A stretch of 51,516 nucleotides of DNA from the IMG/VR virus record IMGVR_UViG_3300033232_000065, positions 1-51,516 of that record; one strand, 5' to 3'. The position numbers and the translations under genes are program-made. Shown here in pieces: positions 1-51,516 of the stretch. Below the pieces are notes generated by a model that ran no database searches, was not told the DNA's origin, and saw only the letters and a program-made list of their open reading frames with translations. The stretch is from a virus (lineage: Duplodnaviria > Caudoviricetes). Within the stretch, counting starts at the first letter, position 1. Each line of letters begins with the position of its first letter.

Positions 1-699
1 CTTGTAGGGGCTCACCCACAAGTTTCAAGAAGTAGTGCCGCCAAGGATGCAGGTCTTTCTCGGGACCAGAAGGTGACCGCCCTCCGGGTCGCGTCGGGGA
101 ACTGCTGAAGGAGATACCGGCCAAGGCCGGTTCCAGGTACGAGGTGGGGGGGCGCATCTCCACCTCGTCTCAGCGGGCCGAGGCCGCCCGGGACGCCGGG
201 CTATCCACCGACCAACGGAAGACCGCCCTCCGGGTCGCGTCGGGGAACTGCCGAAGGAGATACCGGCGCAACCGGGTAAGCGGACGGACCTCGTGGGGGC
301 GTCCCCACAAGGTTCAAGGGCAAGTGCCGCCCGGGCGGCCTCGGCCCGCTGAGACCGGTGGGGGGTCACCCCTCCACCGGTACTGGTGGCAAGCCGTTTC
401 TTCGCCTCCTCCTCGAAGTGCGGGTTGACCCCGAAGGCGGACGCGGCGTGGTCGCGGGCGTCGCCGGTGGCACCCCCCGGAATTTTTTCCGGAGGGTCAG
501 ACTTCACGCCGGCCAGCATTCTCTTCCTCGCCTCCCTCTCGTAGTGCGGGTTGACGCCGAAAGCGGAAGCGGCTTGATCGCGTGATCTCCCCTCTTCCGC
601 CTCGGGAATTTTTTCCACAGGCCGGGGGGTCTTTCCTCCGGTACTGGTGGCAAGCCGTTTCTTCGCCTCTCCCTCGAAGTGCGGGAGGGCGTCGGCGGC
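1..699. repeat. Tandem array of variant gene-fragment cassettes (type A = fragments of the 14035-14694 gene family; type B = fragments of the 11632-12720 gene family); truncated by the contig start
   Basis: A units (+): 1-97, 90-243, 236-335, joined at CGCGTCGG, plus an inverted partial A unit at ~331-381. B units (-): 376-424 (partial), 414-550, 540-699, joined at CG(A/T)AGTGCGGG. Matches to the phage genes: 236-335 vs revcomp 14382-14481 at 98/100; 58-97 vs revcomp 14331-14370 at 39/40; 420-459 identical to 12279-12318. Confidence 0.9.
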
Positions 700-736
700 A
701 TCTCGAATCTGCGCCGTAGAAGGCCCCCAGGAGCCC

Positions 737-1090
737 CTAGAGTCCACGATCGCCCTCTTCCCCGACCTCCGGCCCGGGGTTCGGAAGGAATCCCGCCTCG
801 ATCAGTTTCTTCCTGAAGACCCGGATCGTGCGGTTCATGATCCACCGTTCATGTTCCGTGTAGGCGTACCAGGAAATGTCCCGCGTGTAGAAGTCGAACA
901 CCAGCCCCGCGCCGCCGTCGCCGTTGGCCGATCTTTCCAACAGGTTGATGATGCTGATGGCCGTCTCGCGGACATCGTTGACGCGGCGGTCGGTCCACCC
1001 CTCGTTCTCCAGCCGGGCGGAGTGCGACCGGCGATAGGAGGACGTGACGCTGGCCGCAAAGTTTAACCAGCCTCTCGGACTTGACGGCAT
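737..1090 (-). CDS. Hypothetical protein (satellite-like segment)
   Basis: 117-aa ORF, RBS GGAGGT before ATG; no motif recognised. Confidence 0.6.
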   Translation of the reverse strand: MPSSPRGWLNFAASVTSSYRRSHSARLENEGWTDRRVNDVRETAISIINLLERSANGDGGAGLVFDFYTRDISWYAYTEHERWIMNRTIRVFRKKLIEAGFLPNPGPEVGEEGDRGL

Positions 1091-1493
1091 CGCACCTCCG
1101 TTACATCAGTGTTTTTCGATGAACTGCCAAGCCGCGCCGATCAAGGGTTGATGGGTTATAGATAATTCTGCATATCGTCAAATCACGATAACAAGATACT
1201 ATCCGTCAAATACAAGGGACGCTGTGATTTCGTCTGCGCGGCGGTCGCCGACGGGGGCGTCACCTTTTTTGAGAAGGGGAGCCCCCGCAGGGGCCCCCCG
1301 CGCTTGTTGCCGTCAACGATCCGGGGAATGAACCCATTTCGTGCGGCACTCCTGCTCCCCGGAACCGGCCACCCCGGGTCGGGTGAGGAAAGGGAGGAAC
1401 GCCCTCCCCGCCGAAAGGTTGCCCGGGGACCGCGGCGGACGCCCCCCGGGCGAGGCGTTGGAGACAGGGGCGATACCCTGACCGCCGCGAATG

Positions 1494-1718
1494 TCACAGC
1501 AGCTCCGTCTTTTCGCTGCCCTCGATGATCCGGGCTTTATTCCGGCGTTCGAGGTCCCGAGCATCGACGATCGGGAGGCGTGCACGATCTCCAGCTTTTT
1601 GCACCTCACCGGCGATGCGATAGCTAATTTTCGCGTCCGCCGGCACGATGCACTCGATCTCGATGGTGCGAGTCGGAAATCTCATCCTGTCCATTCCGGG
1701 TCGATCGAAGGGCTGCAT
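1494..1718 (-). CDS. Small capsid-associated protein, positional paralogue of 42842-43066
   Basis: Directly follows the capsid paralogue; weak pattern IEI..R..G....G......A.D.....KA shared with MKIEIIQRCRVRG...AYDRIGAKKAK. Confidence 0.55.
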   Translation of the reverse strand: MQPFDRPGMDRMRFPTRTIEIECIVPADAKISYRIAGEVQKAGDRARLPIVDARDLERRNKARIIEGSEKTELL

Positions 1719-2789
1719 TTAATTCACCCCCGTCGCGATCGCGAAGGCCGCCGTCCGGCGAACGAACACGTCGATGGACGCGAAGCCGATGATGCGGACC
1801 TGGCCTTCCTTCGACCTGGTTTTGTCGTCGATGAGAATTTCGATGCCCGGCCCCCACGTCGCGAGGACCACGCCCTCCTGGAAGTTCCCGAGGAGGATCG
1901 TCCCCGAGGGGATCGAAGTCGTCACGTACAGCGGACGCGCCATCAAGAGGTTGTCGTCGCCCACCATCATCACTTCCCCCCCGGAAATCTTCGGCCGCTT
2001 CCGGAGGATCTCCGCCACGTCAGGACTCGCAATCCACGCTGCGTTCTCCGTCCGGACGTTCCCGTCTTCGAGGACCTTGATCATCCCCGCGCCCGTGGAA
2101 AGCGAGAACCCCGCGCCGGGCCTGGAGTCGATCCCCGGGGTATTCAGGACGCCCGCCGGCTGCCCGTTGACTCCGGAGCCCGCGAAAAGCGCCGTGTCGA
2201 TCCCGGAGGCTAAGGCTCGCCGGACCATGCCTTTCAAAATCGGCTCCGTCGAGCGGCGCGCGCCGAGGAGCAACAGGTTTCTGCTGACCGGCGGGAGCAA
2301 GCAACCGATGGTGCGCGTGCGGAGGACGGCGGCTCCGAGGGACACGGGACTTTCGTCCGGCGCGTTTCCTTCCGTATCAAGCCAGTACCAGAGTCCGCTT
2401 CCGTCCTCCTTCGGGACCACCGCGTCTCCCACCAGGCCGGGCCAAACCTCGACGCCGAGCCGGTTCGCGAGTGCGACGGGGCCGAGCGCGGCCACGAAAT
2501 CATCCGGCCGGGTATTCTCCGCGACGAGGTACCCGCCGGCGGGGTCGGTGGTGATGTTCATGTCGCGGGCGATCGCCCTCGGCGGGATGTACTCCCCGAT
2601 CCGGGCGATCTCGATGTTTTTGAGCATCCCGAGCGAGGAAACGTAGCGACGCTCAGCGCGGCCCTCATCACCGTTTTCCAGGCAGTGCCGAACGTAGTGC
2701 AGGAGGGAGAAGGGCTCCTCCTTCCGTCCCGGCGGTTCAAACGTGATCCGGGAGCCGGGTTCGATCAGTTTTGCTTTGAGTGCAGTCAT
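1719..2789 (-). CDS. HK97-fold major capsid protein paralogue lacking protease/scaffold regions
   Basis: RDMNITTDPAGGYLV vs helper RDMNITTDTAGGFLV; GSGVNGQPAG vs GTGANGQPTG; VRIIGFASIDVFVR vs IRIVGYQSVDVGVR. Confidence 0.9.
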   Translation of the reverse strand: MTALKAKLIEPGSRITFEPPGRKEEPFSLLHYVRHCLENGDEGRAERRYVSSLGMLKNIEIARIGEYIPPRAIARDMNITTDPAGGYLVAENTRPDDFVAALGPVALANRLGVEVWPGLVGDAVVPKEDGSGLWYWLDTEGNAPDESPVSLGAAVLRTRTIGCLLPPVSRNLLLLGARRSTEPILKGMVRRALASGIDTALFAGSGVNGQPAGVLNTPGIDSRPGAGFSLSTGAGMIKVLEDGNVRTENAAWIASPDVAEILRKRPKISGGEVMMVGDDNLLMARPLYVTTSIPSGTILLGNFQEGVVLATWGPGIEILIDDKTRSKEGQVRIIGFASIDVFVRRTAAFAIATGVN

Positions 2790-2807
2790 TTCGTACCTTC
2801 CTTTCTG

Positions 2808-3545
2808 TCACGTATGACGTGACACTTTTTTATCGTTCTCGAACACCTCCGCGGCCTTCCGACCTTTCCGCCCCCGGGGGCCAGCCGGGAGAGGGGAGGG
2901 GGAATCGTCCTGCATATAAAGTTTCTCGATCTCGCGAATCATCATCTCGATCTTCGGATTCTCCGCAATCTGCTTCTCCAGGTGCTCGGCCCACCCGGGG
3001 ATTGCGAAGGACTCCCACGCCTTGCGGACCATCTTTCTCACCTCGGACGGCTTTTCTCCCGTGTTCACCGCGAGCCGGACATGAAATTCAGCGTAGGTGT
3101 GGTACAGGATGTCGGCCATGTGATCGTCGAATTTGTAAAGCGCCTCCCGCGTCGAATCACACTCGTGAGCGAGAACAACCAATTGAACGATGTTGTGGCG
3201 GAACGATTGCCGCAGCCTCGTGAACAGGTCGCACAAGGCGAAGTCCACCTCCGCCTTTTCGACCAATTCACCCTCGCGATGACGAAGCCGCAGTTCCCGG
3301 AGGCGGATCTCTACCCCGAGATTCTTCGCCCGGAGCGCGGCGAGCTTCCCGTCCGTCTTCGAGGTAGGAGACTTGTACTCCTTCACTAGCGCCCGGGTCG
3401 CGCCTACATCGATCCGGGGGGGGTCGTCGTCAGTCCACGCGACGGCTCCGGCCTGATCCCATCGCGTCACGCTGGACCGCGCCACACCTTCAAGGCGGGA
3501 AAGCTCGGCCAGGTTGCACACAGACTTACCGGTCTTTTTTGCCAT
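2808..3545 (-). CDS. terS: Terminase small subunit, lambda Nu1-like (second copy)
   Basis: N-terminal HTH (NLAELSRLEGVARSSVTRW) and LRELRLRHREGELVEKAEV motif; GGAGG RBS; directly downstream of the cos-like region. Confidence 0.75.
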   Translation of the reverse strand: MAKKTGKSVCNLAELSRLEGVARSSVTRWDQAGAVAWTDDDPPRIDVGATRALVKEYKSPTSKTDGKLAALRAKNLGVEIRLRELRLRHREGELVEKAEVDFALCDLFTRLRQSFRHNIVQLVVLAHECDSTREALYKFDDHMADILYHTYAEFHVRLAVNTGEKPSEVRKMVRKAWESFAIPGWAEHLEKQIAENPKIEMMIREIEKLYMQDDSPSPLPAGPRGRKGRKAAEVFENDKKVSRHT

Positions 3546-3608
3546 AAAACCTCCTTGTGTTGCGTGTTGCGGAAAAACAAAAATGTAATCGGCGAAGGAT
3601 AAGATCGG

Positions 3609-3655
3609 GGTCCGAATATACCCCTGACGCAACCTCGCCGGGAGTACCTAAGGTT
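3609..3655 (-). other. Putative cos/packaging initiation site
   Basis: Minus strand AGGTACTCCCGGCGAGGTTGCGTCAGGGGTATATTCGGACC just upstream of terS; resembles the lambda cosQ..AGGTTACG arrangement; imperfect inverted arms GTCAG/CGGAC. Confidence 0.5.
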
Positions 3656-3735
3656 AATCAAGCACTTACGCATGGTCCGCCATCCTCCCCTCCTTCCCCT
3701 CCTTCGCCTCCCTTTCGATGAGGTCTTCCTCCCGG
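3609..3735. repeat. 127-bp exact repeat of the contig end (51390-51516); circularisation overlap
   Basis: Base-by-base identity; length equals a common assembler k of 127. Confidence 0.95.
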
Positions 3736-3842
3736 CGTCGGACGTACGTCCAGCAGCAGCGGGCCTTCTCGCATTCCTGCAGGGTCCGGCCGTCCAGGTG
3801 CTCGCAATCGAGCTCGCAACAGGGGAAGGGATCGGCCGTCAT
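3666..3842 (-). CDS. Small Cys-rich hypothetical protein
   Basis: 58 aa MTADPFPCCELDCEHL...; GGAGG RBS. Confidence 0.5.
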   Translation of the reverse strand: MTADPFPCCELDCEHLDGRTLQECEKARCCWTYVRRREEDLIEREAKEGKEGRMADHA

Positions 3843-3909
3843 AACGCCTCCCTGTTCCGGATCGCGTCCGCTATGTCGGACAGCCCGCCCGTGATGGCGT
3901 CGCCGATCA

Positions 3910-4644
3910 TCACGCGCCACCCTCGATCGCCTCGCGTACTGCGGTAGCCGTCTCTTCCGCGAGGGTATCTCTGGCGAATTGTTCGGAGAGTTCGTAGAAC
4001 GGGAAGTGCTTCTCGTACTGCGGAACTTTGCGCGTCCGGAAAAAAAGGAGCGTGACCTTTCTCCCCTTGCGCTGCCAGATCCCGGCCTTCGTGAAGAAAT
4101 ACCATTCGCCGCTCTTCTTCCTCCTCCGCGACACCGCTGTCGTGTTCGCAAGCGCGTCCGGCTGCGCCTGTAGCCCGGCAAGAATCTTCTGGATCATCCC
4201 GGGTGATACGTTGCCGAACTGGTTCAACGCCACGCCGCGGGCGGGGATGAGGTATTCATTGTTCATCAGCACGTCCTGGATGCCCCGCATCCCGACGCCG
4301 CGGACACCGAACATGGACATCGCCACCTCGAACCCCTTGCGCCGGCGGGGTCCGCCCTCGACCTGCGGCTCGAGATACTTCACGGAGCGCGGCGCCCACG
4401 GCTCCTTGAACCCGATCTCGGCCGTCATATTGTCCATTCTCGGCGGCCGGGAGCGCAGGGCGTTCAGGGTGTACGGGGTCGGGCGGTCGAAGACGCGATG
4501 CATCTCCGAATACAGACGGGCTTTGGTCTTGTCGGTGGTACGGTCCAGCGCTTTCAGCATGGCGAACCGGATGCGGAGTTGGATCGAGCCGCTGAGGGAG
4601 GCGACGAACCTCTCCACGCCCTTTACCTCAGCCTTGATCTGCAT
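3910..4644 (-). CDS. Virion morphogenesis protein (gpZ/HK97 gp10-like)
   Basis: VFDRPTPYTLNAL motif, basic, typical position upstream of terS in GpA-type phages. Confidence 0.65.
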   Translation of the reverse strand: MQIKAEVKGVERFVASLSGSIQLRIRFAMLKALDRTTDKTKARLYSEMHRVFDRPTPYTLNALRSRPPRMDNMTAEIGFKEPWAPRSVKYLEPQVEGGPRRRKGFEVAMSMFGVRGVGMRGIQDVLMNNEYLIPARGVALNQFGNVSPGMIQKILAGLQAQPDALANTTAVSRRRKKSGEWYFFTKAGIWQRKGRKVTLLFFRTRKVPQYEKHFPFYELSEQFARDTLAEETATAVREAIEGGA

Positions 4645-7386: not shown

Positions 7387-8067
7387 TCAGGCTCCGATCC
7401 TTCTATCCTTGCCCGTCAATTCGATCACCCTGCACATTCCCGCAATCCGGGAGGCAATCCGATCCCCGACCTTTTCCGCGATCTCGTCAAGGGTCAGGTT
7501 GCTTGTAATGATCGTGTCCCGGCATTCGGAATACCGCTTGTCGATGATGATGTAGAGCGACTGGAGCGCAAACTCGCTGGCCTTCTCCGCGCCGAGGTCA
7601 TCCAGAACCACAAGGCTCGGCTTCGTGTACTGCCGGATGATGTCCATCTCCCTCCACTCGGCACCCTTCCGGAAGCTCTCCCGTAGCTCCAGCAGGAGGT
7701 TCGCGACGGTCGTGAACGTGTCGTACTCCTGCATCCCCGCGCTCATCAGCAGGGCGACGGCAAAATATGTCTTCCCGGTGCCTGGAGGGCCGTGAAGGAA
7801 CAACCCGCCGCTCTCCTTAGCCGTGCACAGACCCCAAAGCGCCTCATCGATCGACCGAGGGTCTACGTCAAGAAACCTTCTCGGCACCCCCGCGCACTCC
7901 GCCGTCCTCCTCTGCCGCTTTCGTGTTTCCTCCGGCGTCAGTAGTTTCGGCACGAACACCCGTGCTGATTCCGGCGTACTTTCCTGGACGGGCCTTGACG
8001 TTGCCAGTTTGAGCACTCGATCCATGCACGCCTTTGTTTCCGGATCCATTCCTTGTCTCCTTTTCAT
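7387..8067 (-). CDS. DnaC/IstB-like AAA+ helicase loader
   Basis: Walker A GPPGTGKT, Walker B VVLDDLG, TIITSN, RIASRI. Confidence 0.9.
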   Translation of the reverse strand: MKRRQGMDPETKACMDRVLKLATSRPVQESTPESARVFVPKLLTPEETRKRQRRTAECAGVPRRFLDVDPRSIDEALWGLCTAKESGGLFLHGPPGTGKTYFAVALLMSAGMQEYDTFTTVANLLLELRESFRKGAEWREMDIIRQYTKPSLVVLDDLGAEKASEFALQSLYIIIDKRYSECRDTIITSNLTLDEIAEKVGDRIASRIAGMCRVIELTGKDRRIGA

Positions 8068-8695
8068 TCAGGTACGCTTCAAAGTTTCCGGAAAACAACG
8101 TCTGAGGCCGCAGATAGGCGTCCATCTTCGGATCGCCCTTCCATTGGCCGCACTTCTTCTCGATCACCCGAAAGAATTGCTCAACCTGGAATCCCTCCTT
8201 CCACCTGGCGTGGATATGGGATCGGGTCGCCTTGCCTGAGTGTCTGAAGTTCTTTCCCGACATTTCGTTCAGGAAGGAAATGATTCTGTCATATGGGGGC
8301 GCATCGTCGGGCTTGCCCGACAATAGCTCTGTCTCTGTCTCTGTCTCTGTCTCTGTCTCTGTCTCTGTCTCTGTCTCTTGCTCTGGAGTAGCATTTTGAT
8401 ATCCGTCTGACATCAACGTGATATCATCTTGTATCAACCAATGAGATAGTTTGGTAAGTATTTGTATTAATTGCTTTTCTGAAATTCTGAGTCGAAACGC
8501 GAGTTTTTTTATGCTTGTGAGGTCGCCTTCATTCTCGGAAGCGATCAACCAGAGCATAATGAGGACTTTTGCTGATTGTGGGTCGAGTTCATGCCATTCG
8601 ACATCATCCAATAGCTCGCGGTAGAGTTTTATCCAAGGGGGGCGGCGGTCCTTGAAATGTTGAAACCGTTTCCAATTCTTAATTCGGATCGCCAT
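7868..8695 (-). CDS. Phage replication initiator
   Basis: N-terminal NWKRFQHFKDRRPPWIKLY, (ET)8 linker, C-terminal YLRPQTLF domain; upstream of the helicase loader. Confidence 0.85.
   Translation of the reverse strand: MAIRIKNWKRFQHFKDRRPPWIKLYRELLDDVEWHELDPQSAKVLIMLWLIASENEGDLTSIKKLAFRLRISEKQLIQILTKLSHWLIQDDITLMSDGYQNATPEQETETETETETETETETELLSGKPDDAPPYDRIISFLNEMSGKNFRHSGKATRSHIHARWKEGFQVEQFFRVIEKKCGQWKGDPKMDAYLRPQTLFSGNFEAYLNEKETRNGSGNKGVHGSSAQTGNVKARPGKYAGISTGVRAETTDAGGNTKAAEEDGGVRGGAEKVS
8327..8378. repeat. (CTCTGT)8 microsatellite encoding (ET)8
   Basis: Read directly from the sequence. Confidence 0.95.
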
Positions 8696-8807
8696 CTACT
8701 TCCCCTCCCCCTTCATCTCCCTGTCGATCGCGTCGTACCGCCGGGAGTCCTCCGCGTCGGCGACGATGTGGCGATGCCACCACGACTTCTTTGCGAGAGT
8801 CGGGCCG

Positions 8808-9482
8808 TCAGCCCCCCCGCTCGCCAGCCCTTGTCCTGCGGGCGTCTGCGGCCCCTGCGGGGGGGCCAGCCGGGCCGCTTGCGGGGGGTAGATCTTTATC
8901 TTTAAAAGGAGTCGGAGTCGGAGTCGGGGCATTGCGGTTTGTATGCGGCTCGCATAAACCTTCGCGTTCTTGCGGGGTTGCGGATGGCTCTCCGGTGACT
9001 CCGGTTGTGCCTATTTCCGGCTTTTCGACCCCTGTGGATAACTCTGCCGCATTGCGGTTTGTATGCGGTCTCGATGCGCCTCGTATGCGCCTCGTAGAAT
9101 CTCTTTTGATTCCAACACTCTGCCACTTTGAGTGCGCACCTATTTTTGCCGCTTCGGACCGCCTTTTTGATCCAAACGCCCACGGTTGGTGCTCCGGCCA
9201 GTCGTGAACCGATAACACCCCCTCGGGGCTTACGTCGACCCACCGCTTGCTCGTCGCATACGAGGTGAATGCACCCGGCATCCCGGTCCACTCTGCGATC
9301 GCCTCAAGGTCGTCGAGACCGACCCCCTCGAGCACCCCCTGGGGGTGTCTTTCCCGGGTGTAGCACCACAGACAAAACAGGCTGACGATCCCCTGGGACC
9401 CGAGCGCGGCCACGAGCTTCCGGGTCTTCAGGTTCCGGAAGAAAGCAACGTCCAACCGGATGTCGATCGGGGTGACGCTCAT
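8808..9482 (-). CDS. Second replication-initiator-like protein (N-terminal domain plus iteron region)
   Basis: IRLDVAFFRNLKTRKL...LWCY...HDWPEHQPWA, PTPTPTP linker, internal 20-bp direct repeats. Confidence 0.65.
   Translation of the reverse strand: MSVTPIDIRLDVAFFRNLKTRKLVAALGSQGIVSLFCLWCYTRERHPQGVLEGVGLDDLEAIAEWTGMPGAFTSYATSKRWVDVSPEGVLSVHDWPEHQPWAFGSKRRSEAAKIGAHSKWQSVGIKRDSTRRIRGASRPHTNRNAAELSTGVEKPEIGTTGVTGEPSATPQEREGLCEPHTNRNAPTPTPTPFKDKDLPPASGPAGPPAGAADARRTRAGERGG
8929..9068. promoter_or_regulatory. Iteron-like direct repeats flanking a perfect DnaA box
   Basis: GCATTGCGGTTTGTATGCGG at 8929-8948 and 9049-9068; TGTGGATAA at 9033-9041. Confidence 0.55.
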
Positions 9483-9652
9483 CGGGGGACACTTGGCGGG
9501 GGTGGTGGAGCGGGTCGGTGCACGAGCACGTTGTCGATGTGGACGCCAGCGTACCCGATCCGGCGAACGTACCCGACCAGGGTCCAGCCTTGCTTCTCTA
9601 ATTCCTCGAGGCGGGCGCTCCCGATCAGGTGGTACTCGCCCGCGTGGTTCAT
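9479..9652 (-). CDS. Small hypothetical protein
   Basis: 57 aa, ATGA overlaps on both sides. Confidence 0.5.
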   Translation of the reverse strand: MNHAGEYHLIGSARLEELEKQGWTLVGYVRRIGYAGVHIDNVLVHRPAPPPPPSVPR

Positions 9653-10851
9653 CCCCCGGCCTCCATGTACGCTCTCACGAACGCTTCCGCCACTGGTGCG
9701 ACGATGGCGTTTCCATATCCCCTTAGTCGCATTGCCCTCGCTTCCGCCGTCGCGTCTGGATCAAACGATGCGATCGAATCGCCGCCTCGCACCACTCGGG
9801 AGGAAGCCCCATCAACCAGCGGGAATGTGCCGGGTTCAATTGGCCTGTCTTTCCCGTCACGGCAGGGGATCCAGATGGCGTCTCGCCAGAAGCCGTTGCA
9901 AGAACCGCGAAGTTCCGGAGGGGTTGATCGCAAGTCCGCATCTCGGGCGTTCCCACGCGCCCCCTCACGTTCGGCCCGTCGCTCTTGTGATCCTCCGTGG
10001 TCGGCGTCGGCCACGAGGCGAGCACCGCCGTCCTGCCCAACAAGGCGTTTACTGGAACATTCTGACAACTGTGCGCATCTCCGTCCTTGTGGTCCCTCGT
10101 TGTCGGCGTCGGCCATGATGCCAGCATCGACACCACAGACAGCGACGGCCCCTTGTTCCTCGCCACCTCGTTCATCGCGCCGTCTTCCGTTCGAGATTCC
10201 TTCTCCGCTTCGGATGCTTTCGGCGTCGGCCAGGGGGCCAAGGCTTGGGCCGTCCACGCCAGATTGCTCCCGCTGTTCGAGCGGTTTAGTTGTTTCTGCG
10301 AGTACGATTGTGGATCGGAAGCTCGACTTGCATTGTTGTCCGCCACTTGCGGCGTCGGCCACGAAGTACAGCCGCTGCCGGATGTGCGGCGCACCGAAGC
10401 CCGCAGCGCAAAGATCGACCGCCCCAATGGCGTAACCCGCTCCTTCCATGTCAGCGTATACAGAGTCGAGCCAAGCGAGTCCGTCTTTGCTCGCAACCTG
10501 CTCGCCAAAGACGACGCGAGGACGGCAGACGGAGATGAGCCGGAAGAAATCGGGCCAAAGGTGGCGCACGTCGTCTGTTCCTCTGTGCTTCCCTGCCGCG
10601 CTAAACGGCTGGCAGGGGCAGGAGCCGGTCCACACGGGGCGGTCGTCGGGCCATCCAGCGCGGCGGAGGGCGTAGGACCAGACCCCGACCCCGGCGAAGA
10701 AGTGATGTTGGGTGTATCCCATAAGGTCGCTTGCCTGGACATCCTGTATGCTCCTTTCATCAACCACCCCCTCGGCGATATGCCCCCGCTTTATCAGTTC
10801 CCGCAGCCACGCGGCGGCCTTCGGATCGTTCTCCGAATAATATGCGGTCAT
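9649..10851 (-). CDS. C5 cytosine DNA methyltransferase, alpha polypeptide
   Basis: FFAGVG (I), GSCPCQPFS (IV), EQV (VI), HIRQRLYF (VIII), LRGYGNAI (X). Confidence 0.92.
   Translation of the reverse strand: MTAYYSENDPKAAAWLRELIKRGHIAEGVVDERSIQDVQASDLMGYTQHHFFAGVGVWSYALRRAGWPDDRPVWTGSCPCQPFSAAGKHRGTDDVRHLWPDFFRLISVCRPRVVFGEQVASKDGLAWLDSVYADMEGAGYAIGAVDLCAAGFGAPHIRQRLYFVADAASGGQQCKSSFRSTIVLAETTKPLEQREQSGVDGPSLGPLADAESIRSGEGISNGRRRDERGGEEQGAVAVCGVDAGIMADADNEGPQGRRCAQLSECSSKRLVGQDGGARLVADADHGGSQERRAEREGARGNARDADLRSTPPELRGSCNGFWRDAIWIPCRDGKDRPIEPGTFPLVDGASSRVVRGGDSIASFDPDATAEARAMRLRGYGNAIVAPVAEAFVRAYMEAGG
9723..10742 (-). CDS. Alternative-frame C5-MTase beta polypeptide with four WPTP repeats
   Basis: Own RBS AAAGGAG before ATG 10742; four WPTP units; LNPAHSRWLMGLP; arrangement as in M.EcoHK31I. 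Confidence 0.75.
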   Translation of the reverse strand: MSRQATLWDTPNITSSPGSGSGPTPSAALDGPTTAPCGPAPAPASRLARQGSTEEQTTCATFGPISSGSSPSAVLASSLASRLRAKTDSLGSTLYTLTWKERVTPLGRSIFALRASVRRTSGSGCTSWPTPQVADNNASRASDPQSYSQKQLNRSNSGSNLAWTAQALAPWPTPKASEAEKESRTEDGAMNEVARNKGPSLSVVSMLASWPTPTTRDHKDGDAHSCQNVPVNALLGRTAVLASWPTPTTEDHKSDGPNVRGRVGTPEMRTCDQPLRNFAVLATASGETPSGSPAVTGKTGQLNPAHSRWLMGLPPEWCEAAIRSHRLIQTRRRKRGQCD

Positions 10852-11126
10852 ACCAGCATCATCTCCGACGTCGCGTCCCTCGATAGTTCCGCGAGTCGCG
10901 CCGCGCCCCTCGCCGCCGGGAATGATCTTGGCTTCGCGGGCCGCTTCCGTGGCGGGATGATCAGGCCGAGTTCGTGTGCGAATTCCTCGATGGTCCAGTG
11001 CCGGGCCGGTATGTTCACCAGTGGATGCCAGGCCCGGATGGAGATGCGCCGCCTGCGGTTCTTGCACGTGGATTCGATCGCGCAGCCGACCGGGTCGCTG
11101 GACGGGGCCCCAATGCGGATCATCAC
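10848..11126 (-). CDS. Hypothetical protein
   Basis: GTGA/ATGA overlaps with both neighbours. Confidence 0.5.
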   Translation of the reverse strand: MMIRIGAPSSDPVGCAIESTCKNRRRRISIRAWHPLVNIPARHWTIEEFAHELGLIIPPRKRPAKPRSFPAARGAARLAELSRDATSEMMLV

Positions 11127-11659
11127 GTTCTCCGCAGCGGGTTGCATTCGGACTTTTGAAGGAAGAGATTTCCTGTTCTCCCGGCGGGTGCGTCGCACTT
11201 TACCTGTATCCGTTTCTTACAGAACAGGAGGATATCCGTCCCTTTGATCTGTACGTCCTGCCGCTTGTCCTCTTCGGCGTCCATCCAGATCGGGAACCGC
11301 CCGCGCCGCATCAACTCGACGACGCACTGGACGGCGAACTTGCCTTTTTGTGAAGTGCTCATCGCTTCCGAAAACTCGCTCCATTTCGGGTAGGACTCGA
11401 AACGCAGGGTCCGCATGTCTTCTACCCATTCGATACGAACAAGCCATCCTTCCGCTGTAACGCCATTCACTCCGTTTTGCGTTGCTTTGCCGAGTCGTGG
11501 GCTGTGCCGCTTGATCGCTTCAATTCCGTTCCTCGTGGGGAAGACGTATACCCTCTTCTCGAAAGGCGAGACGTGGGCGCGGATGTCACTATTCTCCTCG
11601 AAGATCCCATGCTCAAAGAGCGGAGGAGCTTCTACAGTTGGTTGCCCCAGTGCTCCCAT
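11123..11659 (-). CDS. Putative PD-(D/E)XK nuclease
   Basis: DVQIKGTD...IQVKCD....TGNLFLQ motif; overlaps the end of the MT-A70 gene. Confidence 0.6.
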   Translation of the reverse strand: MGALGQPTVEAPPLFEHGIFEENSDIRAHVSPFEKRVYVFPTRNGIEAIKRHSPRLGKATQNGVNGVTAEGWLVRIEWVEDMRTLRFESYPKWSEFSEAMSTSQKGKFAVQCVVELMRRGRFPIWMDAEEDKRQDVQIKGTDILLFCKKRIQVKCDAPAGRTGNLFLQKSECNPLRRT

Positions 11660-12720
11660 CCCCTCGCCTTCGCCCGTGCAAATAGTTCGATCCGTTTCCC
11701 GTGCGTATAAAGTTTGTCGATCAGTTCGCGGAAACGTTCCGGCTTCACGGAATGTTCCGTGCGCTCGATGGAGACAACGCTGTCGTGCAGTTCCTTCGCG
11801 TCGGGGGTACAGGATCCCCGCGTGGCGATGAGGAGAAATTCGTGGCGTACGCTGTTGTAATGCCCGAAGTTGTGCTTCACCTTGTCCCATACGAAAGAGG
11901 ACTTGTAGCGGAAGCCCCAAGCGCCGATGACTTTGAGCGCGTCTTCGAGTAGCGGGGATGTCGCCCATAGGAACAGGACGGCGTTTTCGTCCGCCATGTC
12001 TCGTATCGGAAGATCGCAGATCGCCTGCAGGGTCATCGTCGGGTAGTGGTGGTCCGGTTGCGGATACCCTTTCAGTGCCTCTCCGTATTTGTTCCCGTAC
12101 TCCCACGGCGGGTCCGCGTACAGGACGCGGTACTTGGCCTTCGGCATCGGTGCGGGGTCTTTCGCCTCCCGCCGTCGCAGTTCCTTGGCGGCATGCGGCA
12201 TTTTCATCTCGCCCGTGCGGACTTTCGCCGCGATGTCCGGTGCGCGCTCCTGGAGGGCTTTTGCGTTGGAGACGTAGCGCGGGTTGACCCCGAAGGCGGA
12301 CGCGGCGTGGTCGCGGGCTTGTAAAAGGTCAGGAATTTTTTCCTTACCTTTCTCCGCTGGCCTTCCGGGTGCAGACTTCTTCCCGGCGTCTGACATCCGC
12401 GCCTTCGCCTCCCTCTCGTAGTGCGGGAGAGCGTCGGCGGCGGCCATCGCACGCTGCGCCGCTGTCAGGTGCCTCCGTTTCAGGTTCAGGGAGACAACGA
12501 AGGAGACGGCGGACGGGCCGCGCCATTCGCGGAACTTCGGCTCGATCTTCAATTCACGACAGGCGCGGTATCGGTTGCGCCCGTCGAGGATCTTCCCCTC
12601 GTAAGTCCAGATCGGCTCGATCAGGCCGTTTTCGCGGATATCGTTTTTCAGGGAGTCGTATTCCTCCCCGGACATCATCGGGAAGATGGAGGCGACGGGG
12701 TGAAAGTCTGGGCGGGTCAC
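11632..12720 (-). CDS. ParB-N/HTH/MT-A70 adenine methyltransferase fusion
   Basis: ILDGRNRYRAC (ParB box), NLKRRHLT, HTH ARDHAASAFGVNPRYV, YADPPW, LFLWAT, HSVKPE, RIELFAR. Confidence 0.92.
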   Translation of the reverse strand: MTRPDFHPVASIFPMMSGEEYDSLKNDIRENGLIEPIWTYEGKILDGRNRYRACRELKIEPKFREWRGPSAVSFVVSLNLKRRHLTAAQRAMAAADALPHYEREAKARMSDAGKKSAPGRPAEKGKEKIPDLLQARDHAASAFGVNPRYVSNAKALQERAPDIAAKVRTGEMKMPHAAKELRRREAKDPAPMPKAKYRVLYADPPWEYGNKYGEALKGYPQPDHHYPTMTLQAICDLPIRDMADENAVLFLWATSPLLEDALKVIGAWGFRYKSSFVWDKVKHNFGHYNSVRHEFLLIATRGSCTPDAKELHDSVVSIERTEHSVKPERFRELIDKLYTHGKRIELFARAKARGWEHWGNQL

Positions 12721-14034: not shown

Positions 14035-14694
14035 TCACGTCACCTCCATTATCCTGATAAGGGTTGAAAGCCAATCAAAACACAGGCGCGTATTTTTCAA
14101 AATATTATCCTTCTCGTGTGTCTCCAACCCGGCCAGAAAATACTCTGAGGTGATCCCATCTATGTCACGGGACAATCGGCCAATGGTTCCGCCGATCCTT
14201 GTGGCGACGGCGAAGTTTTCAGGAGGGACGGTGTGCTTGAAAGGAGTCTTCTTCGTTCCGATTTCCGCCAGCCCCGTCACGGTGGGCGGCTCGTCCGATT
14301 CCACCATCTGCTCGAATACGTCCTTCGGCACCGACGCGACTCGGAGGGCGGTCACCTTCTGGTCCCGAGACAGGCCCGCGTCCCGAGCGGCACTTGCCCT
14401 TGAACCTTGTGGGGACGCCCCCACGAGGTCCGTCCGCTTACCCGGTTGCGCCGGTATCTCCTTCAGCAGTTCCCCGACGCGGAGCATGGCGCGGGCCTGG
14501 ATGCGGTCTGCACATTTGCGGAGAGTGTTGTCTCCCGCCTGCTTCGCGTAGGAGGCGATGGCCTCGGCCTTGTTCGCCCAATCCTTGCACTCATCCAGGC
14601 GAGAACACTTTTCAATCGCGGCTCTGGCGTTCTTGTACGTCTCCGGAAGCATCGCCCCCGCTATCTGTGATTCCTTGACCGGGAGTGTGTTCAC
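14035..14694 (-). CDS. Putative DNA-binding protein (helical N-domain, variable linker, HTH-like segment)
   Basis: DECKDWANKAEAIASYAKQA...RIQARA..RVGELL, then AARDAGLSRDQKVTALRVA; source family of the type A cassettes. Confidence 0.8.
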   Translation of the reverse strand: MNTLPVKESQIAGAMLPETYKNARAAIEKCSRLDECKDWANKAEAIASYAKQAGDNTLRKCADRIQARAMLRVGELLKEIPAQPGKRTDLVGASPQGSRASAARDAGLSRDQKVTALRVASVPKDVFEQMVESDEPPTVTGLAEIGTKKTPFKHTVPPENFAVATRIGGTIGRLSRDIDGITSEYFLAGLETHEKDNILKNTRLCFDWLSTLIRIMEVT

Positions 14695-16212: not shown

Positions 16213-16469
16213 AGATCGAGAACCTGATCGAGACCGACGATTCCCGACGCGAGAAACGCCGCTTGTCTCTCCTCAAGGCGCAGTATTTCTGCTTCGGCGT
16301 ATCCGGTGCCGCGCTGGCCGGGGCCGCCGACGCCTGGTGGAAGTCCGGCCACGTGGCCGCCCTGTTCCTCGTGGCGGCGCTGATCCTCGGGGCGTGCAAG
16401 GTGTCGTGCCGCGCCCCGCGGAGAAGGGGGCGCCTCTCCCGCCCGATCCCGCTGCCGGCGGCGAAGTGA
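16209..16469 (+). CDS. Small membrane protein
   Basis: Two hydrophobic segments; ATGA overlap. Confidence 0.55.
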   Translation: MKIENLIETDDSRREKRRLSLLKAQYFCFGVSGAALAGAADAWWKSGHVAALFLVAALILGACKVSCRAPRRRGRLSRPIPLPAAK

Positions 16470-16630
16470 TGATTGATTTCCTCGACATCATTTACGCGGC
16501 GTTCGTGGCGGTCGTCGTGGCGTGTGCGTTGGCGGGGTTTCTCGGATAACCCGGCCGCTACCAGTGAGAGATGGTACTGCCCGCGCTCGGGCATCCGCCC
16601 AGGTCGTGGCCGGCCGGAAAGGAGGGGGCG

Positions 16631-16831
16631 ATGATGTGTGACACCTGCGAACACGAAGAGGTCCTCGAAGAATTGAACGACCTGTGCGCCAATCCCGATT
16701 ACGAGTGGGCGAACGACACCTTATCCTCGATTGCAGAGTGGGTCGAGGAGAAGGGTCACGTGACGGAGAAGCAGATCGACGCGATCGAGAACATCAAGGC
16801 GAAAGTGGAGGAAAAGGATGCCCTGGACTGA
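16631..16831 (+). CDS. Hypothetical protein
   Basis: 66 aa acidic, strong RBS. Confidence 0.6.
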   Translation: MMCDTCEHEEVLEELNDLCANPDYEWANDTLSSIAEWVEEKGHVTEKQIDAIENIKAKVEEKDALD

Positions 16832-17705
16832 GTTCGAATGCCCCGATGGCGAGAAGATCCTGATCGAGAAATGCCTTGTCTCCTGCCGCATGGGGGGCCG
16901 CTGCGTGGCGAAGCCGACGCTGATGCTGATGTCCCGACGCCGCCCGTGGAAAGGTAAGATTTCCGCAACCCAGGGCCTGAACGGAACGCGCATGGAGTAT
17001 CTTAAGATCACGCAGCCGCACTCGGAGAGGCCCACGGACCGGGCGTTCGCGCTTCTCGGCACGTTCCACCACCTGAAGATGCAGAGCGTCGCCGTGCCGG
17101 AATCCCTCACGGAAGAGTGGATGGAGGACGAAGCCGGGACGGGGATGTTCGACTGCTACGACGCCGAGGAGAAAGCGCTCTACGACTTCAAGACGTGCGG
17201 CTGCTTCAAGATCAACCGCGCACTCGGCAAGGTGAAGCAGGAGGAGATCGACCCGACTGCGGAGCCGTACAAGAGCGGCCCACGGAAGGGACAGCCGAGG
17301 ACCCGCACGGTGTGGTCGATGGGCGAGCCCGACATCTTCGAATGGCAGATGCAACTCTCCCGGTACGCCTGGATGATCCGGGACGCGGGGTTCGAGGTCG
17401 AGCGGGCCTTCGTCCAGGCGACCGCTCGGGACTTCAACGCGCAGAACTCCCGGCAGTACGGGCTCGATCGGCAGATCTACATCATCCCGATCGACATCCT
17501 GTCCCGCGACATCGTGTTCGCCTACTACACCGAGAAGCAGGTGGCGCTTTGGTCCACGCTTGCCGACAACAAGATCCCGCCGCCGTGCAGTGATCGAGAG
17601 ACTTGGGAAGGGCGAAGATGCCAGCGGTATTGTCCGGTATGGGCGTACTGCGACGTCGGAATCGCCGCGCATCAAACCGCAGACCCGAAGGAGGAGATCA
17701 CATGA
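16818..17705 (+). CDS. Cas4/RecB-like PD-(D/E)XK exonuclease
   Basis: GTFHH, FDCYD...LYDFKT, QLSRY, C-terminal C..C..YC.V..YC. Confidence 0.8.
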   Translation: MPWTEFECPDGEKILIEKCLVSCRMGGRCVAKPTLMLMSRRRPWKGKISATQGLNGTRMEYLKITQPHSERPTDRAFALLGTFHHLKMQSVAVPESLTEEWMEDEAGTGMFDCYDAEEKALYDFKTCGCFKINRALGKVKQEEIDPTAEPYKSGPRKGQPRTRTVWSMGEPDIFEWQMQLSRYAWMIRDAGFEVERAFVQATARDFNAQNSRQYGLDRQIYIIPIDILSRDIVFAYYTEKQVALWSTLADNKIPPPCSDRETWEGRRCQRYCPVWAYCDVGIAAHQTADPKEEIT

Positions 17706-18835
17706 GCATACCTTCCAACAGATTCAAGCCGCGTCCGCAATATACGACCATCGTAGGGCTCTCCTCCGTCATGAGGATGCCACGCCTCGGCAAAATACGG
17801 CTCGGCATTAAGGTGAAGAACGCGAAGGGCGTCGAGTACCCGAAGGATGTCGACTATTTCGTATGCGGCCCTGAAGTGCAGGAGATCTACGGGGCGGAAC
17901 CGAAAGAACTGGATGTGCTGATTCCGGCCTCCGACCCCAGTTTGTACTTTCCACAATCGTTGAAATGGTATCGTGGCGCCCGCCTGGTCTGTAAGGGGAA
18001 CGGGGAGACGGCGACGCGTATCAACGAGGAGACGGGGAACATGTTCGAGATGGACTGCCCGTGCGAGCAACTCCACGACCCGCAGACGAACCCGAAGGGT
18101 CCCTGCCGGCCGCGGGCGAATCTCATGTTGATCCTTCCGAAGGTCAGCATGGGCGGTGCGTACCAAGTCGATACGGGGTCTACGAACAACATCGTCAACA
18201 TCAACTCGACGCTGAAGTGGATTGAGTCCATGCTCGGTCGGGTCGCATGGGTACCCCTCACCCTGAAGCGCGTCCCGACGAAGATCCAGACCCCGGACGG
18301 GACCACGACGAAATCCCTGCTGCAACTCGAATTCAAGGGGAACATGCAGGACGCGGCCGCCCTTCGTCAGTCGGACTGGATCAGCATCCAAGGGGGCTCC
18401 GTTCCCGCCGCCCTTCCGCCGCACGTCATCGACGATGACGGACCGGGGGATGTGACCGCCGATGTCATCGACGAGACAACCGGGGAGGTCATCGAGGGGG
18501 CTTCCGGATCTGCCCCCTCTGCCGAGGAGAAAAAACAGGAACCGCCGCCCGTCGATCTGTCGAAGTCCACCCCGCCGGCCGAAGGAGAAGAACCATTCAT
18601 CGATACCGACACGGGGCATTCAGAGGATCCCCCGCCCCCGTTGCCGAAGTTCGAGTGGCAGATCCATCCGCCGAAGGACGCCGGCGGCCTCGCCATGGCG
18701 GCGAACAAGATCAAGTCCCGCGACGAGTTCGACCTGTTCCGGAAGGAGTTCCAGGCCATCATCGACAAGATGCGCCCGGGCATGAAGGTCGCCGTTGAGA
18801 AGGCCATCACCGACCGACAGGCCACGCTGTTCTAA
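17702..18835 (+). CDS. Gp3-like/recombination-associated protein (likely annealing partner of the exonuclease)
   Basis: MPRLGKIRLGIK...YPKDVDYF...LVCKGNGE motif; acidic tail; follows the exonuclease. Confidence 0.7.
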   Translation: MSIPSNRFKPRPQYTTIVGLSSVMRMPRLGKIRLGIKVKNAKGVEYPKDVDYFVCGPEVQEIYGAEPKELDVLIPASDPSLYFPQSLKWYRGARLVCKGNGETATRINEETGNMFEMDCPCEQLHDPQTNPKGPCRPRANLMLILPKVSMGGAYQVDTGSTNNIVNINSTLKWIESMLGRVAWVPLTLKRVPTKIQTPDGTTTKSLLQLEFKGNMQDAAALRQSDWISIQGGSVPAALPPHVIDDDGPGDVTADVIDETTGEVIEGASGSAPSAEEKKQEPPPVDLSKSTPPAEGEEPFIDTDTGHSEDPPPPLPKFEWQIHPPKDAGGLAMAANKIKSRDEFDLFRKEFQAIIDKMRPGMKVAVEKAITDRQATLF

Positions 18836-18888: not shown

Positions 18889-19113
18889 ATGAAGGAAGAC
18901 AAAGAGATCCGGATTGAGGTGGTCGGAAACGCTTACGTCCTGGGGTTGTCGGTCTATGACGATGCCACGGGGTTGACGTTGGCCACAGGCAAGAAGGTCG
19001 TGGTCCTGGACACGGTCGAGGACGCCGCGCTCGGCAAGGCGATCCGGGATCTGCTCCGTACCCGGATCCGGTCGCCCCGGAAGGCGAAGCGCGGAGAGGA
19101 GGTGACGGCATGA
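18889..19113 (+). CDS. Hypothetical protein
   Basis: 74 aa; C-terminal LGKAIR resembles LGRAVR of the next ORF. Confidence 0.55.
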   Translation: MKEDKEIRIEVVGNAYVLGLSVYDDATGLTLATGKKVVVLDTVEDAALGKAIRDLLRTRIRSPRKAKRGEEVTA

Positions 19114-51095: not shown

Positions 51096-51342
51096 GCAGG
51101 GCCTTTACCTCCGAAATGTTGGAACATCCAACAATCTGCGGGGAAATCCTGGTCGGCAAACCCAACAAGCGGGCTCGGCAGGCCCCGATCCGGCCCTCCC
51201 ACACGCCAATGACGCCGGAAACAGGGACCAACTCGCCGTTTTTAACGGCCAATTCCAATTCCTTCAAGGATGCCTGGGCCTTCAGTAGGCGGGACCGCTG
51301 GACGGCAACCTTCGAATTATCCGACCGGCTGTGAGTCGCCAT
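50953..51342 (-). CDS. terS: Terminase small subunit (short, Nu1-like C-terminal part)
   Basis: ELELAVKNGELVPV...RARLLGLPTRI...IHECLDEL; upstream of terL. Confidence 0.8.
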   Translation of the reverse strand: MATHSRSDNSKVAVQRSRLLKAQASLKELELAVKNGELVPVSGVIGVWEGRIGACRARLLGLPTRISPQIVGCSNISEVKALLERNIHECLDELSVGASVYVDTADVEGSSTPESGGMGRRKKKTKPRK

Positions 51343-51389: not shown

Positions 51390-51516
51390 GGTCCGAATAT
51401 ACCCCTGACGCAACCTCGCCGGGAGTACCTAAGGTTAATCAAGCACTTACGCATGGTCCGCCATCCTCCCCTCCTTCCCCTCCTTCGCCTCCCTTTCGAT
51501 GAGGTCTTCCTCCCGG
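51390..51516. repeat. Terminal copy of 3609-3735
   Basis: Exact 127-bp identity. Confidence 0.95.

Follow-up and report, generated by a model that had tools for sequence, protein, structure and literature searches.

The first 699 nucleotides (nt) of the IMG/VR virus record IMGVR_UViG_3300033232_000065 (Duplodnaviria; Caudoviricetes) hold an array of seven partial copies of the variable segments of two genes encoded further along the same record, called here gene A (14035-14694) and gene B (11632-12720). The whole record (51,516 nt) was analysed and is referred to as the window. The variable middle of either gene family proves to be a DNA palindrome of 20-48 bp that is specific to the allele and occupies a fixed spot in the linker-coding stretch before the helix-turn-helix (HTH), and it is this palindrome, rather than a reading frame or a protein domain, that is the common denominator of all array units. 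Judging from the neighbouring contigs, the 699 nt are the inner part of a longer array with at least 9 fragments, lying in an integrative satellite island near a tRNA gene, and comparable arrays recur in other satellites. We tentatively suggest that the array could be a satellite's multi-allele set of helper cis-sites, working as landing pads or decoys and built by unequal recombination.

Anatomy of the array

The fragments of the array, the remnant that follows them and the two resident genes are the following (palindrome coordinates refer to the family palindrome of each unit).

1-97, plus strand: A1, 3' two-thirds of an A-type unit (LVGAHPQVSRSSAAKDAGLSRDQKVTALRVAS); palindrome 1-22
98-243, plus strand: A2, complete A-type unit, frame-shifted relative to A1; palindrome 139-168
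244-335, plus strand: A3, A-type unit cut after 'AAR', nearly the resident allele; palindrome 288-313
326-339, no strand: inverted head-to-head junction GCCGCCCGGGCGGC, 14 nt and palindromic, which arose at the CCCGGG of two 'AAR' codings
336-372, minus strand: inverted A-type fragment (..GVTPHRSQRAEAAR), joined to B3' at the microhomology GGTGGA
373-424, minus strand: B3', left part only of a B-type unit (PHFEEEAKKRLATSTGG)
425-550, minus strand: B2, complete B-type unit, right flank 96% to resident gene B; palindrome 472-497
551-699, minus strand: B1, complete B-type unit; palindrome 599-622
700-747, minus strand: 48-nt remnant of a ParB-like domain end (STAQIRDAADAL...), compared with P0002, with the GTG start of the open reading frame (ORF) 25-747
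11632-12720, minus strand: gene B, resident allele, 362 aa; cassette ~12273-12441; palindrome 12325-12352
14035-14694, minus strand: gene A, resident allele, 219 aa, phrog_33995; cassette 14331-14481; palindrome 14405-14430

The matches between the array and the resident genes are far beyond chance, with E-values from 9.5e-45 to 4e-9. The region 236-335 is identical to the reverse complement of 14382-14481 at 98 of 100 positions, and 90-121 to that of 14450-14481 at 32 of 32, with 81% identity between 1-97 and the reverse complement of 14331-14427. On the gene B side, 414-459 corresponds to 12273-12318 (96%) and 661-699 to 12403-12441 (90%). A preliminary description of the window had already reported at least seven fragments from the variable segments of these two genes, one of them 98/100 identical to the resident allele, and both statements agree with our counts. 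It had also described a single head-to-tail row, which has to be abandoned, since A units are coded on the plus strand and B units on the minus strand, in two convergent blocks that meet at GCCGCCCGGGCGGC. The capture of the variable segment only, also proposed there, needs a correction for B1, which continues about 48 nt upstream into the end of the ParB-like domain (700-747).

The start of A1 is located on a neighbouring contig (G137:C8), and the full A1 unit can be seen in L132. Around the inverted junction, 330-355 is the exact reverse complement of 167-192 (26/26), and the inverted A fragment together with B3' makes a palindrome at 354-381; for comparison with this inverted fragment, the natural allele P0141 reads GGGATPHRSQRAAAARDAGLS. 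B3' is the sole fragment of the window without the GGAAWWWWTTCC-core palindrome. Its segment 373-424 matches 634-685 at 94%, and 373-459 is identical to positions 374-460 of L038.

The A-A junctions occur at an 8-nt microhomology, CGCGTCGG (90-97 and 236-243), which in gene A flanks the segment on both sides (...LRVGELL, ...LRVASVP). Having a period of 146 nt, each A unit is out of frame with the next. The B-B junctions occur at the near-repeat CGTAG(T/C)GCGGG, which flanks the gene B segment (PHYE..., PRYV...), and the B units, with periods of 126 and 135 nt, are in frame within the minus-strand ORF 25-747, whose GTG start overlaps the stop of a 117-aa gene. In the flanks, A1 differs from the resident allele by 6 synonymous and 1 non-synonymous codon changes in 20 codons, and B2 from B1 by 5 synonymous and 3 non-synonymous changes in 14 codons. 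Since these differences are mostly synonymous, we conclude that the units diverged as working genes before entering the array.

The idea of an archive of alleles of one segment, taken from two helper-type genes, is in line with what we found, as the units carry differing alleles and similar middles exist in intact genes. The stricter expectation, that each middle would match the intact gene of another phage, held only in part: similar middles were found in P0140 (for A2), P0141, P0142 and P0143, none of them identical.

A palindrome at a fixed position

For gene A, the palindromes were evaluated in 65 distinct variable regions, obtained from 76 usable loci among 80 (L051-L130). The best inverted repeat has on average 9.5 pairs in the variable regions, against 6.2 in control windows of the same genes and 5.9 in shuffles, and at least 10 pairs are reached by 49% of the variable regions vs 0.6% of the shuffles. 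Against the control windows of its own gene, the variable region comes first or equal first in 75% of the 76 loci. The palindrome is centred 25.5 nt (interquartile range 22.5-28.5) upstream of the HTH anchor, with a GC-rich core (GGGGCGCCCC, GGACGGCACCGTCC and similar) and arms that vary by allele, as GAACCTAGTAGGGGCGCCCCTACTAGGTTC in L057. Gene B behaves in the same way: the linker contains the best inverted repeat of the whole gene in 5 of 5 distinct natural loci of full length, and likewise in the resident allele, these repeats having 8 to 21 pairs, and the largest palindrome (48 nt) was found in L040. Among the natural loci of both genes (L051-L130 for gene A, L039-L045 for gene B), we also observed subgroups with common outer arms, ATCAAA...TTTGAT, and inner arms changing in a compensating way.

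The same feature is found in the arrays, namely the one in the window and two others described below, in the contig G137:C51 of a bacterial metagenome-assembled genome (MAG) and in L028. The B units of the three arrays have a common core, GGAA-WWWW-TTCC, corresponding to the 'EKIP' codons, and their outer arms differ between units yet are complementary. Positions 1-760 of the window contain four inverted repeats of 10-11 pairs, the rest of the window averaging 1.2 of at least 8 pairs per 760 nt. Folding z scores are negative in 9 of 9 stretches (7 of the array and the 2 resident genes), ranging from -0.35 to -3.15. By our reading, the family palindrome is kept in 16 of 17 fragments of the three arrays (6/7 in the window, 6/6 in G137:C51 and 4/4 in L028), being reduced to the core in the fourth L028 unit. 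The unit flanks are cut at varied points: A3 ends after AAR, the inverted piece and a partial G137:C51 unit are short, and the L028 units are devoid of the HTH part.

Two other readings of the palindromes were considered and dropped. Regarding RNA hairpins, the internal mismatches show no G.T bias (12 G.T, 20 A.C and 39 other). Regarding an origin of replication, the initiator genes and (CTCTGT)n repeats of the phage are located at 7868-9482.

The resident genes and their families

The gene A protein is predicted to have a helical N-terminal part, a disordered linker (residues 79-98), the HTH and a C-terminal dimer domain. One search retrieved 468 relatives, with a family pattern of ...ADRIQARAIRRCGELLKEI, then 15-30 variable residues, then SR.QAA.DAGLS..Q..TALRVA.VP..., and in the relatives P0003 and P0004 the N-terminal sequence is common up to GELLKEIP and the middles are different. 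An AlphaFold2 (AF2) model (predicted local distance difference test, pLDDT, 82) shows the variable residues 79-98 as a disordered loop, with a long helix before it and the helices of the HTH after it. As a homodimer, the protein scored 0.77, vs 0.00 for the best of 3 controls, with a symmetric interface formed by the C-terminal domain. This score was reached by 20 of 30 proteins solved as same-chain pairs and by 1 of 23 solved as single chains, reference counts that are rough due to the use of a custom alignment; the runs agree in at least 68% of contacts, with a partner pLDDT of at least 75. The modelling thus supports, but does not prove, that the gene A protein pairs as a dimer.

No Pfam family was found for gene A, nor any PDB entry by sequence profile, and Foldseek against PDB gave nothing at E ≤ 0.001. 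The VIA wide structure comparison had a best Z of 5.6, the DNA-binding domain of SopB coming at Z 5.4, tied with unrelated helical proteins. A tblastn search with P0001 gave no match in cultured phages or in plasmids.

Gene B encodes a ParB-like domain (phrog_4715, 5e-12), a linker, the HTH and an MT-A70 methyltransferase (Pfam, 4.7e-22). Fusions of ParB with methyltransferases are described as common in phages, with a role called unknown, in passages of PMC12704722, and a part of PMC13229309 presents the steering of modification enzymes to loci by ParB homologues as an unconfirmed hypothesis.

Related arrays in satellites

The preliminary description had called for a search for similar arrays and for an extension beyond position 1, and comparable arrays are now seen in L028, G137:C51, G137:C8 and several multi-unit ORFs. 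A protein search with the B block led to P0123/P0138, an ORF with four B units in the bacterial MAG contig G137:C51 (111,261 nt). Among these units are B1 and B2 of the window, their order unchanged, and a copy of the resident allele of gene B. G137:C51 starts exactly with the first 127 nt of the window and then diverges. Another contig of the same MAG, G137:C8 (87,668 nt), ends in those 127 nt and otherwise carries ordinary bacterial genes, resembling MutS, GlnD, XerD and TrpS by the reading of their N-termini. As the three contigs meet in one exact 127-mer, they belong to a single assembly graph as its edges, and the window does not end physically at position 1, which is a branch point. In a given cell, G137:C8 may continue into either the window or G137:C51.

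In G137:C8, the order is an integrase-like ORF, an ORF6N-like ORF and tRNA-Met; other sequence of about 115 nt separates this tRNA from a 17-nt remnant of an A right flank, after which come A0 and A1, both full units. The contig thereby adds two units, up to the tRNA-Met region, and the path from G137:C8 to the window holds at least 9 fragments. The integrase-like and ORF6N-like ORFs (L136 ~16364-17944) are on the 5' side of the tRNA-Met that precedes the array; this tRNA may thus be part of the element itself and not its target.

The sister array in G137:C51 is composed of A1, a different A unit, an inverted junction at the same GCCGCCCGGG, here leading into B2, then B1, a resident-type B unit and a partial B unit. 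The resident-type unit (415-569) is 96% identical over 155 nt to positions 12273-12427 of the window. The backbone that follows includes, in this order, the capsid, the small terminase, a primase-polymerase, an integrase, an apparent partial tRNA 3' end and bacterial genes. Comparing the window and G137:C51, the array blocks are 98-100% identical and the backbones only about 80%. The partial tRNA end adjoining the G137:C51 integrase belongs to a different tRNA from the tRNA-Met.

L028 comes from an independent assembly. Its array (P0124) is inside a 102.7-kb contig titled uncultured Thermodesulfobacteriota MAG and has four in-frame variant units after a remnant of the ParB-like domain end (EAKKR - variable - EKIP - ..SREH), with three different joins at 4-5-nt microhomologies. 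The island measures 8.8 kb, has tRNA-Leu at one border and a 61-nt repeat of the 3' end of this tRNA at the other, and contains an integrase, a primase, a DUF3987 gene, a weak small-terminase match and a small HExxH protein adjoining the array. The host MAG gave no second match to the array protein. Beyond the right repeat of the island, at 19044-19070, there is a third, degenerate (78%) copy of the tRNA-Leu 3' end, which may be the scar of an older island at the same site.

On their gene content, L028 and G137:C51 correspond to phage satellites, small islands with an integrase, att repeats and a handful of genes for packaging or replication that lack a complete virion module. Of its own satellite, the window contains no more than the part with the small terminase, the capsid and the 117-aa gene, and the link of this satellite to a helper consists only in sequence sharing with the co-assembled phage.

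A HMMER scan with the B block over 1.84 billion representatives resulted in 190 matches at E ≤ 0.001. Within 23 multi-stretch matches, at least 10 are in-frame tandems of variant units (listed below); the others comprise 2 unrelated repeat proteins and genes with a single unit. One of the tandems, P0274, has a ParB-like N-terminus followed by four units.

In-frame tandem ORFs: P0144, P0150, P0156, P0157, P0172, P0176, P0181, P0216, P0230, P0274

The phage side gave a different picture. Extra units were found in none of the 80 gene A loci and none of the 12 gene B loci of viral contigs. In viral contigs, there were also no matches for a 24-mer of the A-A junction or for a gapped pattern of two ALRVA codings 117-147 nt apart, and no relative of P0123 was found. 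A protein search with the reading of the A array (window 99-428) gave 4 matches, all natural single-unit genes or fragments, none with the A-A junction. Separately, P0143 (JGI contig, 1169 nt) is a gene A homologue in which the right flank ..ALRVANVPKG runs directly into the allele-like middle GEAFPHHSQRA.., and may represent an A-A junction inside a gene.

A satellite fragment joined to a circular phage

The record, classed as 'linear' with a CheckV completeness of 100, ends with 127 nt (51390-51516) that are an exact repeat (100%) of 3609-3735. A k of 127 is a common largest k in de Bruijn assembly, and an exact terminal overlap of this size is the mark left by a k=127 path revisiting a node, which makes 3609-51389 a circular phage and 1-3608 a tail entering it. 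Read from its overlaps, the record is thus an assembly path, with a satellite fragment (1-3608) running into a circular phage of 47,781 bp (3609-51389). The features of the tail are as follows.

737-1090, minus strand: 117-aa gene, satellite backbone
1719-2789, minus strand: HK97-type capsid protein (Pfam Phage_capsid 3.8e-19; phrog_617)
2808-3632, probable ATG at 3545, minus strand: satellite small terminase (phrog_57), with the N-terminal DNA-binding part
737-3608, minus strand: satellite backbone in the window, ~80% identical to the G137:C51 backbone
3609-3735 = 51390-51516, no strand: 127-nt assembly overlap, closes the phage circle and joins the satellite tail

The satellite-like carrier of the preliminary description is therefore recovered in this tail, with its small terminase, capsid and 117-aa genes, and in the sister arrays, which are in integrase-bearing islands. 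The sole relative of the 117-aa protein in viral contigs is in L008 (53% identity), followed there by a small HExxH protein and a tyrosine integrase. The phage, the window tail and the G137:C51 satellite have an identical 44-nt stretch immediately before their small terminase genes (3608-3651; L038 3331-3374), a candidate late promoter or packaging site common to the phage and the satellites. The phage small terminase (50960-51342) matches only the C-terminal part of phrog_57 (positions 87-173), without the N-terminal DNA-binding part, and the satellite one (2808-3632) covers positions 10-135.

In the early region of the phage, gene A comes first and gene B next, followed by another methyltransferase (9649-11067), a pair of replication initiators and a DnaC-like loader. 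About 10 tandem units of CTCTGT are found at 8315-8391, inside the initiator gene 7868-8695 (minus strand), in the lowest-GC kilobase of the window (0.533), and this tract is probably the phage origin, housed in the initiator gene. Seven tandem copies with a period of 57 nt, 66-100% alike, are present at 26616-27128, likely within a structural gene. An Rfam scan of 1-4000 gave no match.

What the arrays could be for

We favour, with a confidence that falls somewhat short of even, the reading of the array as a set of helper cis-sites of many alleles. Binding by the proteins, the benefit for the satellite and the mode of unit acquisition are what we infer here. The palindromes would be cis-acting sites, parS- or operator-like, of the HTH proteins of the gene A and gene B types, and the array would enable the satellite to load or sequester these proteins from any helper variant that infects. 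One option is that the helper ParB-like methyltransferase would be loaded onto the satellite DNA, which would then get treated, and another is the titration of a helper regulator. New units might be added by unequal or microhomology recombination between the conserved flanks of the array and the gene of the current helper. As the proposed site adjoins the coding sequence of its presumed reader, both would move as one cassette.

Several observations speak for sites of this kind. The palindromes are general in both gene families, the array units retain them, and the arrays recur in satellites but were not seen in phages. Gene B combines a ParB-like domain with an HTH, gene A combines an HTH with a modelled homodimer, and the arrays hold near-identical copies of alleles of the co-assembled phage. 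The near identity of A3 to the resident allele, that of the resident-type unit of G137:C51 to gene B and the excess of identity of the array blocks over their backbones point to recent exchange with the helper. The second option of the preliminary description, a collection of binding sites, gains indirect support as well, because the cassettes carry the allele-specific palindrome that marks these gene families.

Other observations weigh against the cis-site reading. The palindrome arms differ greatly between alleles with similar HTHs, the covariation between half-sites and recognition helices is weak (partial Mantel r 0.07, p ~0.05), and the register of the 'innermost 8 nt' is not uniform. The fold match of gene A to ParB-type HTH domains (SopB/VirB/ParB) is not above noise. 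A 20-mer of the A-A junction had 18 matches in metagenome contigs, 0/18 in a gene A context. In each of the three arrays the B units stay in frame, something that a role as DNA sites does not require. The array of the window is at a contig end, the graph branch point, and since G137:C51 and G137:C8 share its assembly graph, the independent cases are only L028 and the database ORFs. The arrays are also untidy, with truncated, inverted and chimeric B-A units and five kinds of microhomology junction, which fits debris too.

Debris is in fact the main rival, and we consider it possible, if rather doubtful. The array would be a dead remnant of helper genes in which palindromes stall replication and provoke template switching and unequal exchange, leaving a functionless pile-up. 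Palindromes stimulate slippage between flanking direct repeats, and the junctions are at short and differing microhomologies (CGCGTCGG, CGTAGYGCGGG, GGTGGA and the CCCGGG inversion in the window, GCGGC in G137:C51, 4-5 nt in L028), to which the out-of-frame A units and the truncated and chimeric ones can be added. However, debris would hardly explain why the palindrome is kept in nearly all fragments (by our reading) despite the varying breakpoints, why arrays are at a comparable place in unrelated satellites, or why array blocks are nearly identical between backbones that are not, and no pile-ups occur at the 92 phage loci with the same palindromes.

Silent donor cassettes, as in vls or pilS, were the first option of the preliminary description, with variants copied by gene conversion into the expressed helper genes, switching their specificity. 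This option is weakened and now seems improbable, since the array is on another replicon than the expressed genes, the L028 units are devoid of the HTH part, nothing else in the L028 host MAG matches the array protein, truncation affects A3 and several further units, and no benefit for the satellite is evident. The conserved flanks do also border the variable region of the expressed genes, one unit is nearly the resident allele, P0003 and P0004 share their N-terminal sequence and differ in the middles, and the palindrome and the HTH would move together in a cassette, all as expected for donors.

Could the array be an artefact of the assembly, a chimera produced by walking across strain variants where the contig end is tangled? 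We regard it as unlikely, to a similar degree. With 5-11 nt, the microhomologies of the junctions are much shorter than any k of an assembly, the two A-A and the two B-B junctions differ in sequence, so that separate reads would be needed for each, the L028 array is internal to a long contig of another assembly, and multi-unit ORFs come from several sources. It is true that the array is at a contig end, that three contigs meet at one exact 127-mer and that the record itself is a satellite-plus-phage path closed by a 127-nt overlap.

Finally, the B block could be translated into a tandem linker/HTH protein, a dominant-negative decoy against the helper ParB-methyltransferase with the A block irrelevant, as the in-frame B units of the window, G137:C51 and L028, the GTG start overlapping the stop of the 117-aa gene and the multi-unit ORFs (at least 10 of the 23 multi-stretch database matches, e.g. 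P0274) would allow, but this is very unlikely given that the window ORF continues through about 105 codons of antisense A sequence, the L028 units carry no HTH, the in-frame state results partly from the in-frame likeness of the two flanks (P-H/R-Y...AK), in-frame cases are favoured by discovery via protein search, and the A units are unreadable as one protein.

Returning to the cis-site reading, a further extension of it, which we put forward as a speculation with a low likelihood, is that satellite arrays might be a heritable memory of past helpers, working by protein capture or titration and not by guide RNAs. Helpers would diversify the site-plus-reader cassette of these two widespread families of HTH proteins in order to escape piracy, and satellites would capture each new cassette into the tandem array.

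If the proposal is true, the unnamed family phrog_33995 and the common ParB-like methyltransferase fusions of phages carry a hidden cis-element inside the gene, the allele-specific palindrome, which would be a concrete handle on the role and the loading place of these proteins. Satellites would exploit or disarm many helper variants by collecting their sites, a new layer in the arms race between helpers and satellites, and the arrays would form a sequence archive of a new kind, carried by mobile elements. Should they prove to be debris, the rule of a palindrome in the linker still accounts for the hypervariability of the segment and for the assembly breaks.

Comparison with known systems

Satellites are known to pirate cis-sites of their helpers, as P4 with its P2-type cos and the phage-inducible chromosomal islands (PICIs) with pac/cos mimicry. 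The arrays would be similar in that helper proteins are made to act on the DNA of the satellite through the copies of helper sites present in it, and a second helper-like stretch, 3608-3651, is present upstream of the small terminase in the phage and both satellites. On the other hand, the sites proposed here are of many alleles in tandem, come from inside two early genes with coding flanks, and would be read by HTH or ParB-like proteins, not by the terminase.

In ParB-parS, SopB-sopC and KorB-OB, dimeric HTH proteins bind short palindromes, and the sites can be in or beside parB. Palindromes are also found here, with gene B having a ParB-like domain and then an HTH, and gene A being a predicted dimer. 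In contrast, these palindromes are longer (20-48 bp), allele-specific and inside the linker-coding stretch, their role as sites is a prediction, and gene A resembles the HTH domains of SopB, VirB and ParB only weakly. A proposed cis-site in the tolerant-linker stretch of its own gene, co-varying between phage types, also recalls the lambda-type origins, whose iterons are in the linker-coding part of the initiator gene O, but the likely origin of this phage is elsewhere, in the (CTCTGT)n tract of 7868-8695, and genes A and B match no replication initiators.

Tandem silent cassettes for gene conversion are present in Borrelia vls, Neisseria pilS and Mycoplasma MgPar, the last having an array that mixes pieces of two genes. 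The likeness is considerable: tandem partial copies of the variable part of expressed genes, conserved flanks, short flanking repeats and, as in MgPar, two genes in one array. They differ in that here the putative donors and the expressed genes belong to separate elements, DNA-binding proteins inside the cell would be targeted and the variable part is a DNA palindrome.

Arrays of clustered regularly interspaced short palindromic repeats (CRISPR) consist of direct repeats, nearly identical and some 23-50 nt long, between which stand unique spacers of comparable length. The array of the window was rejected as one of them, as its conserved parts are coding flanks of 40-85 nt, 75-94% alike, its periods are 126, 135 and 146 nt, and its blocks are convergent. 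The VIPR array (bioRxiv 10.64898/2026.10.15.759431) is composed of tandem 5-nt units GG[C/T]NN, at least 4 in a row, and the pattern GGYNN x4+GGY has 0 matches in the window. What CRISPR and VIPR share with the satellite arrays is an ordered archive of sequences of competing mobile elements on a mobile element; these arrays, composed of gene fragments of 52-149 nt, have neither short identical repeats nor cas genes nor GGYNN 5-nt units.

Diversity-generating retroelements were also discarded, because the reverse transcriptase gene expected beside a template repeat is missing, PF00078 having no match in the 51.5-kb record (control genomes were matched), and the middles of the units are unalignable, differing in length and in all bases, not mainly in adenines. 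Neither is it an integron cassette array, in which the cassettes meet within attC palindromes and intI adjoins attI, as the junctions are 40-70 nt from the palindromes, at varied microhomologies, and there is no tyrosine recombinase in the window. A word search of the literature, supplements aside, retrieved no account of such arrays or of linker palindromes. We rate the anatomy of the array as new, unlike each of the nearest known systems in defining respects.

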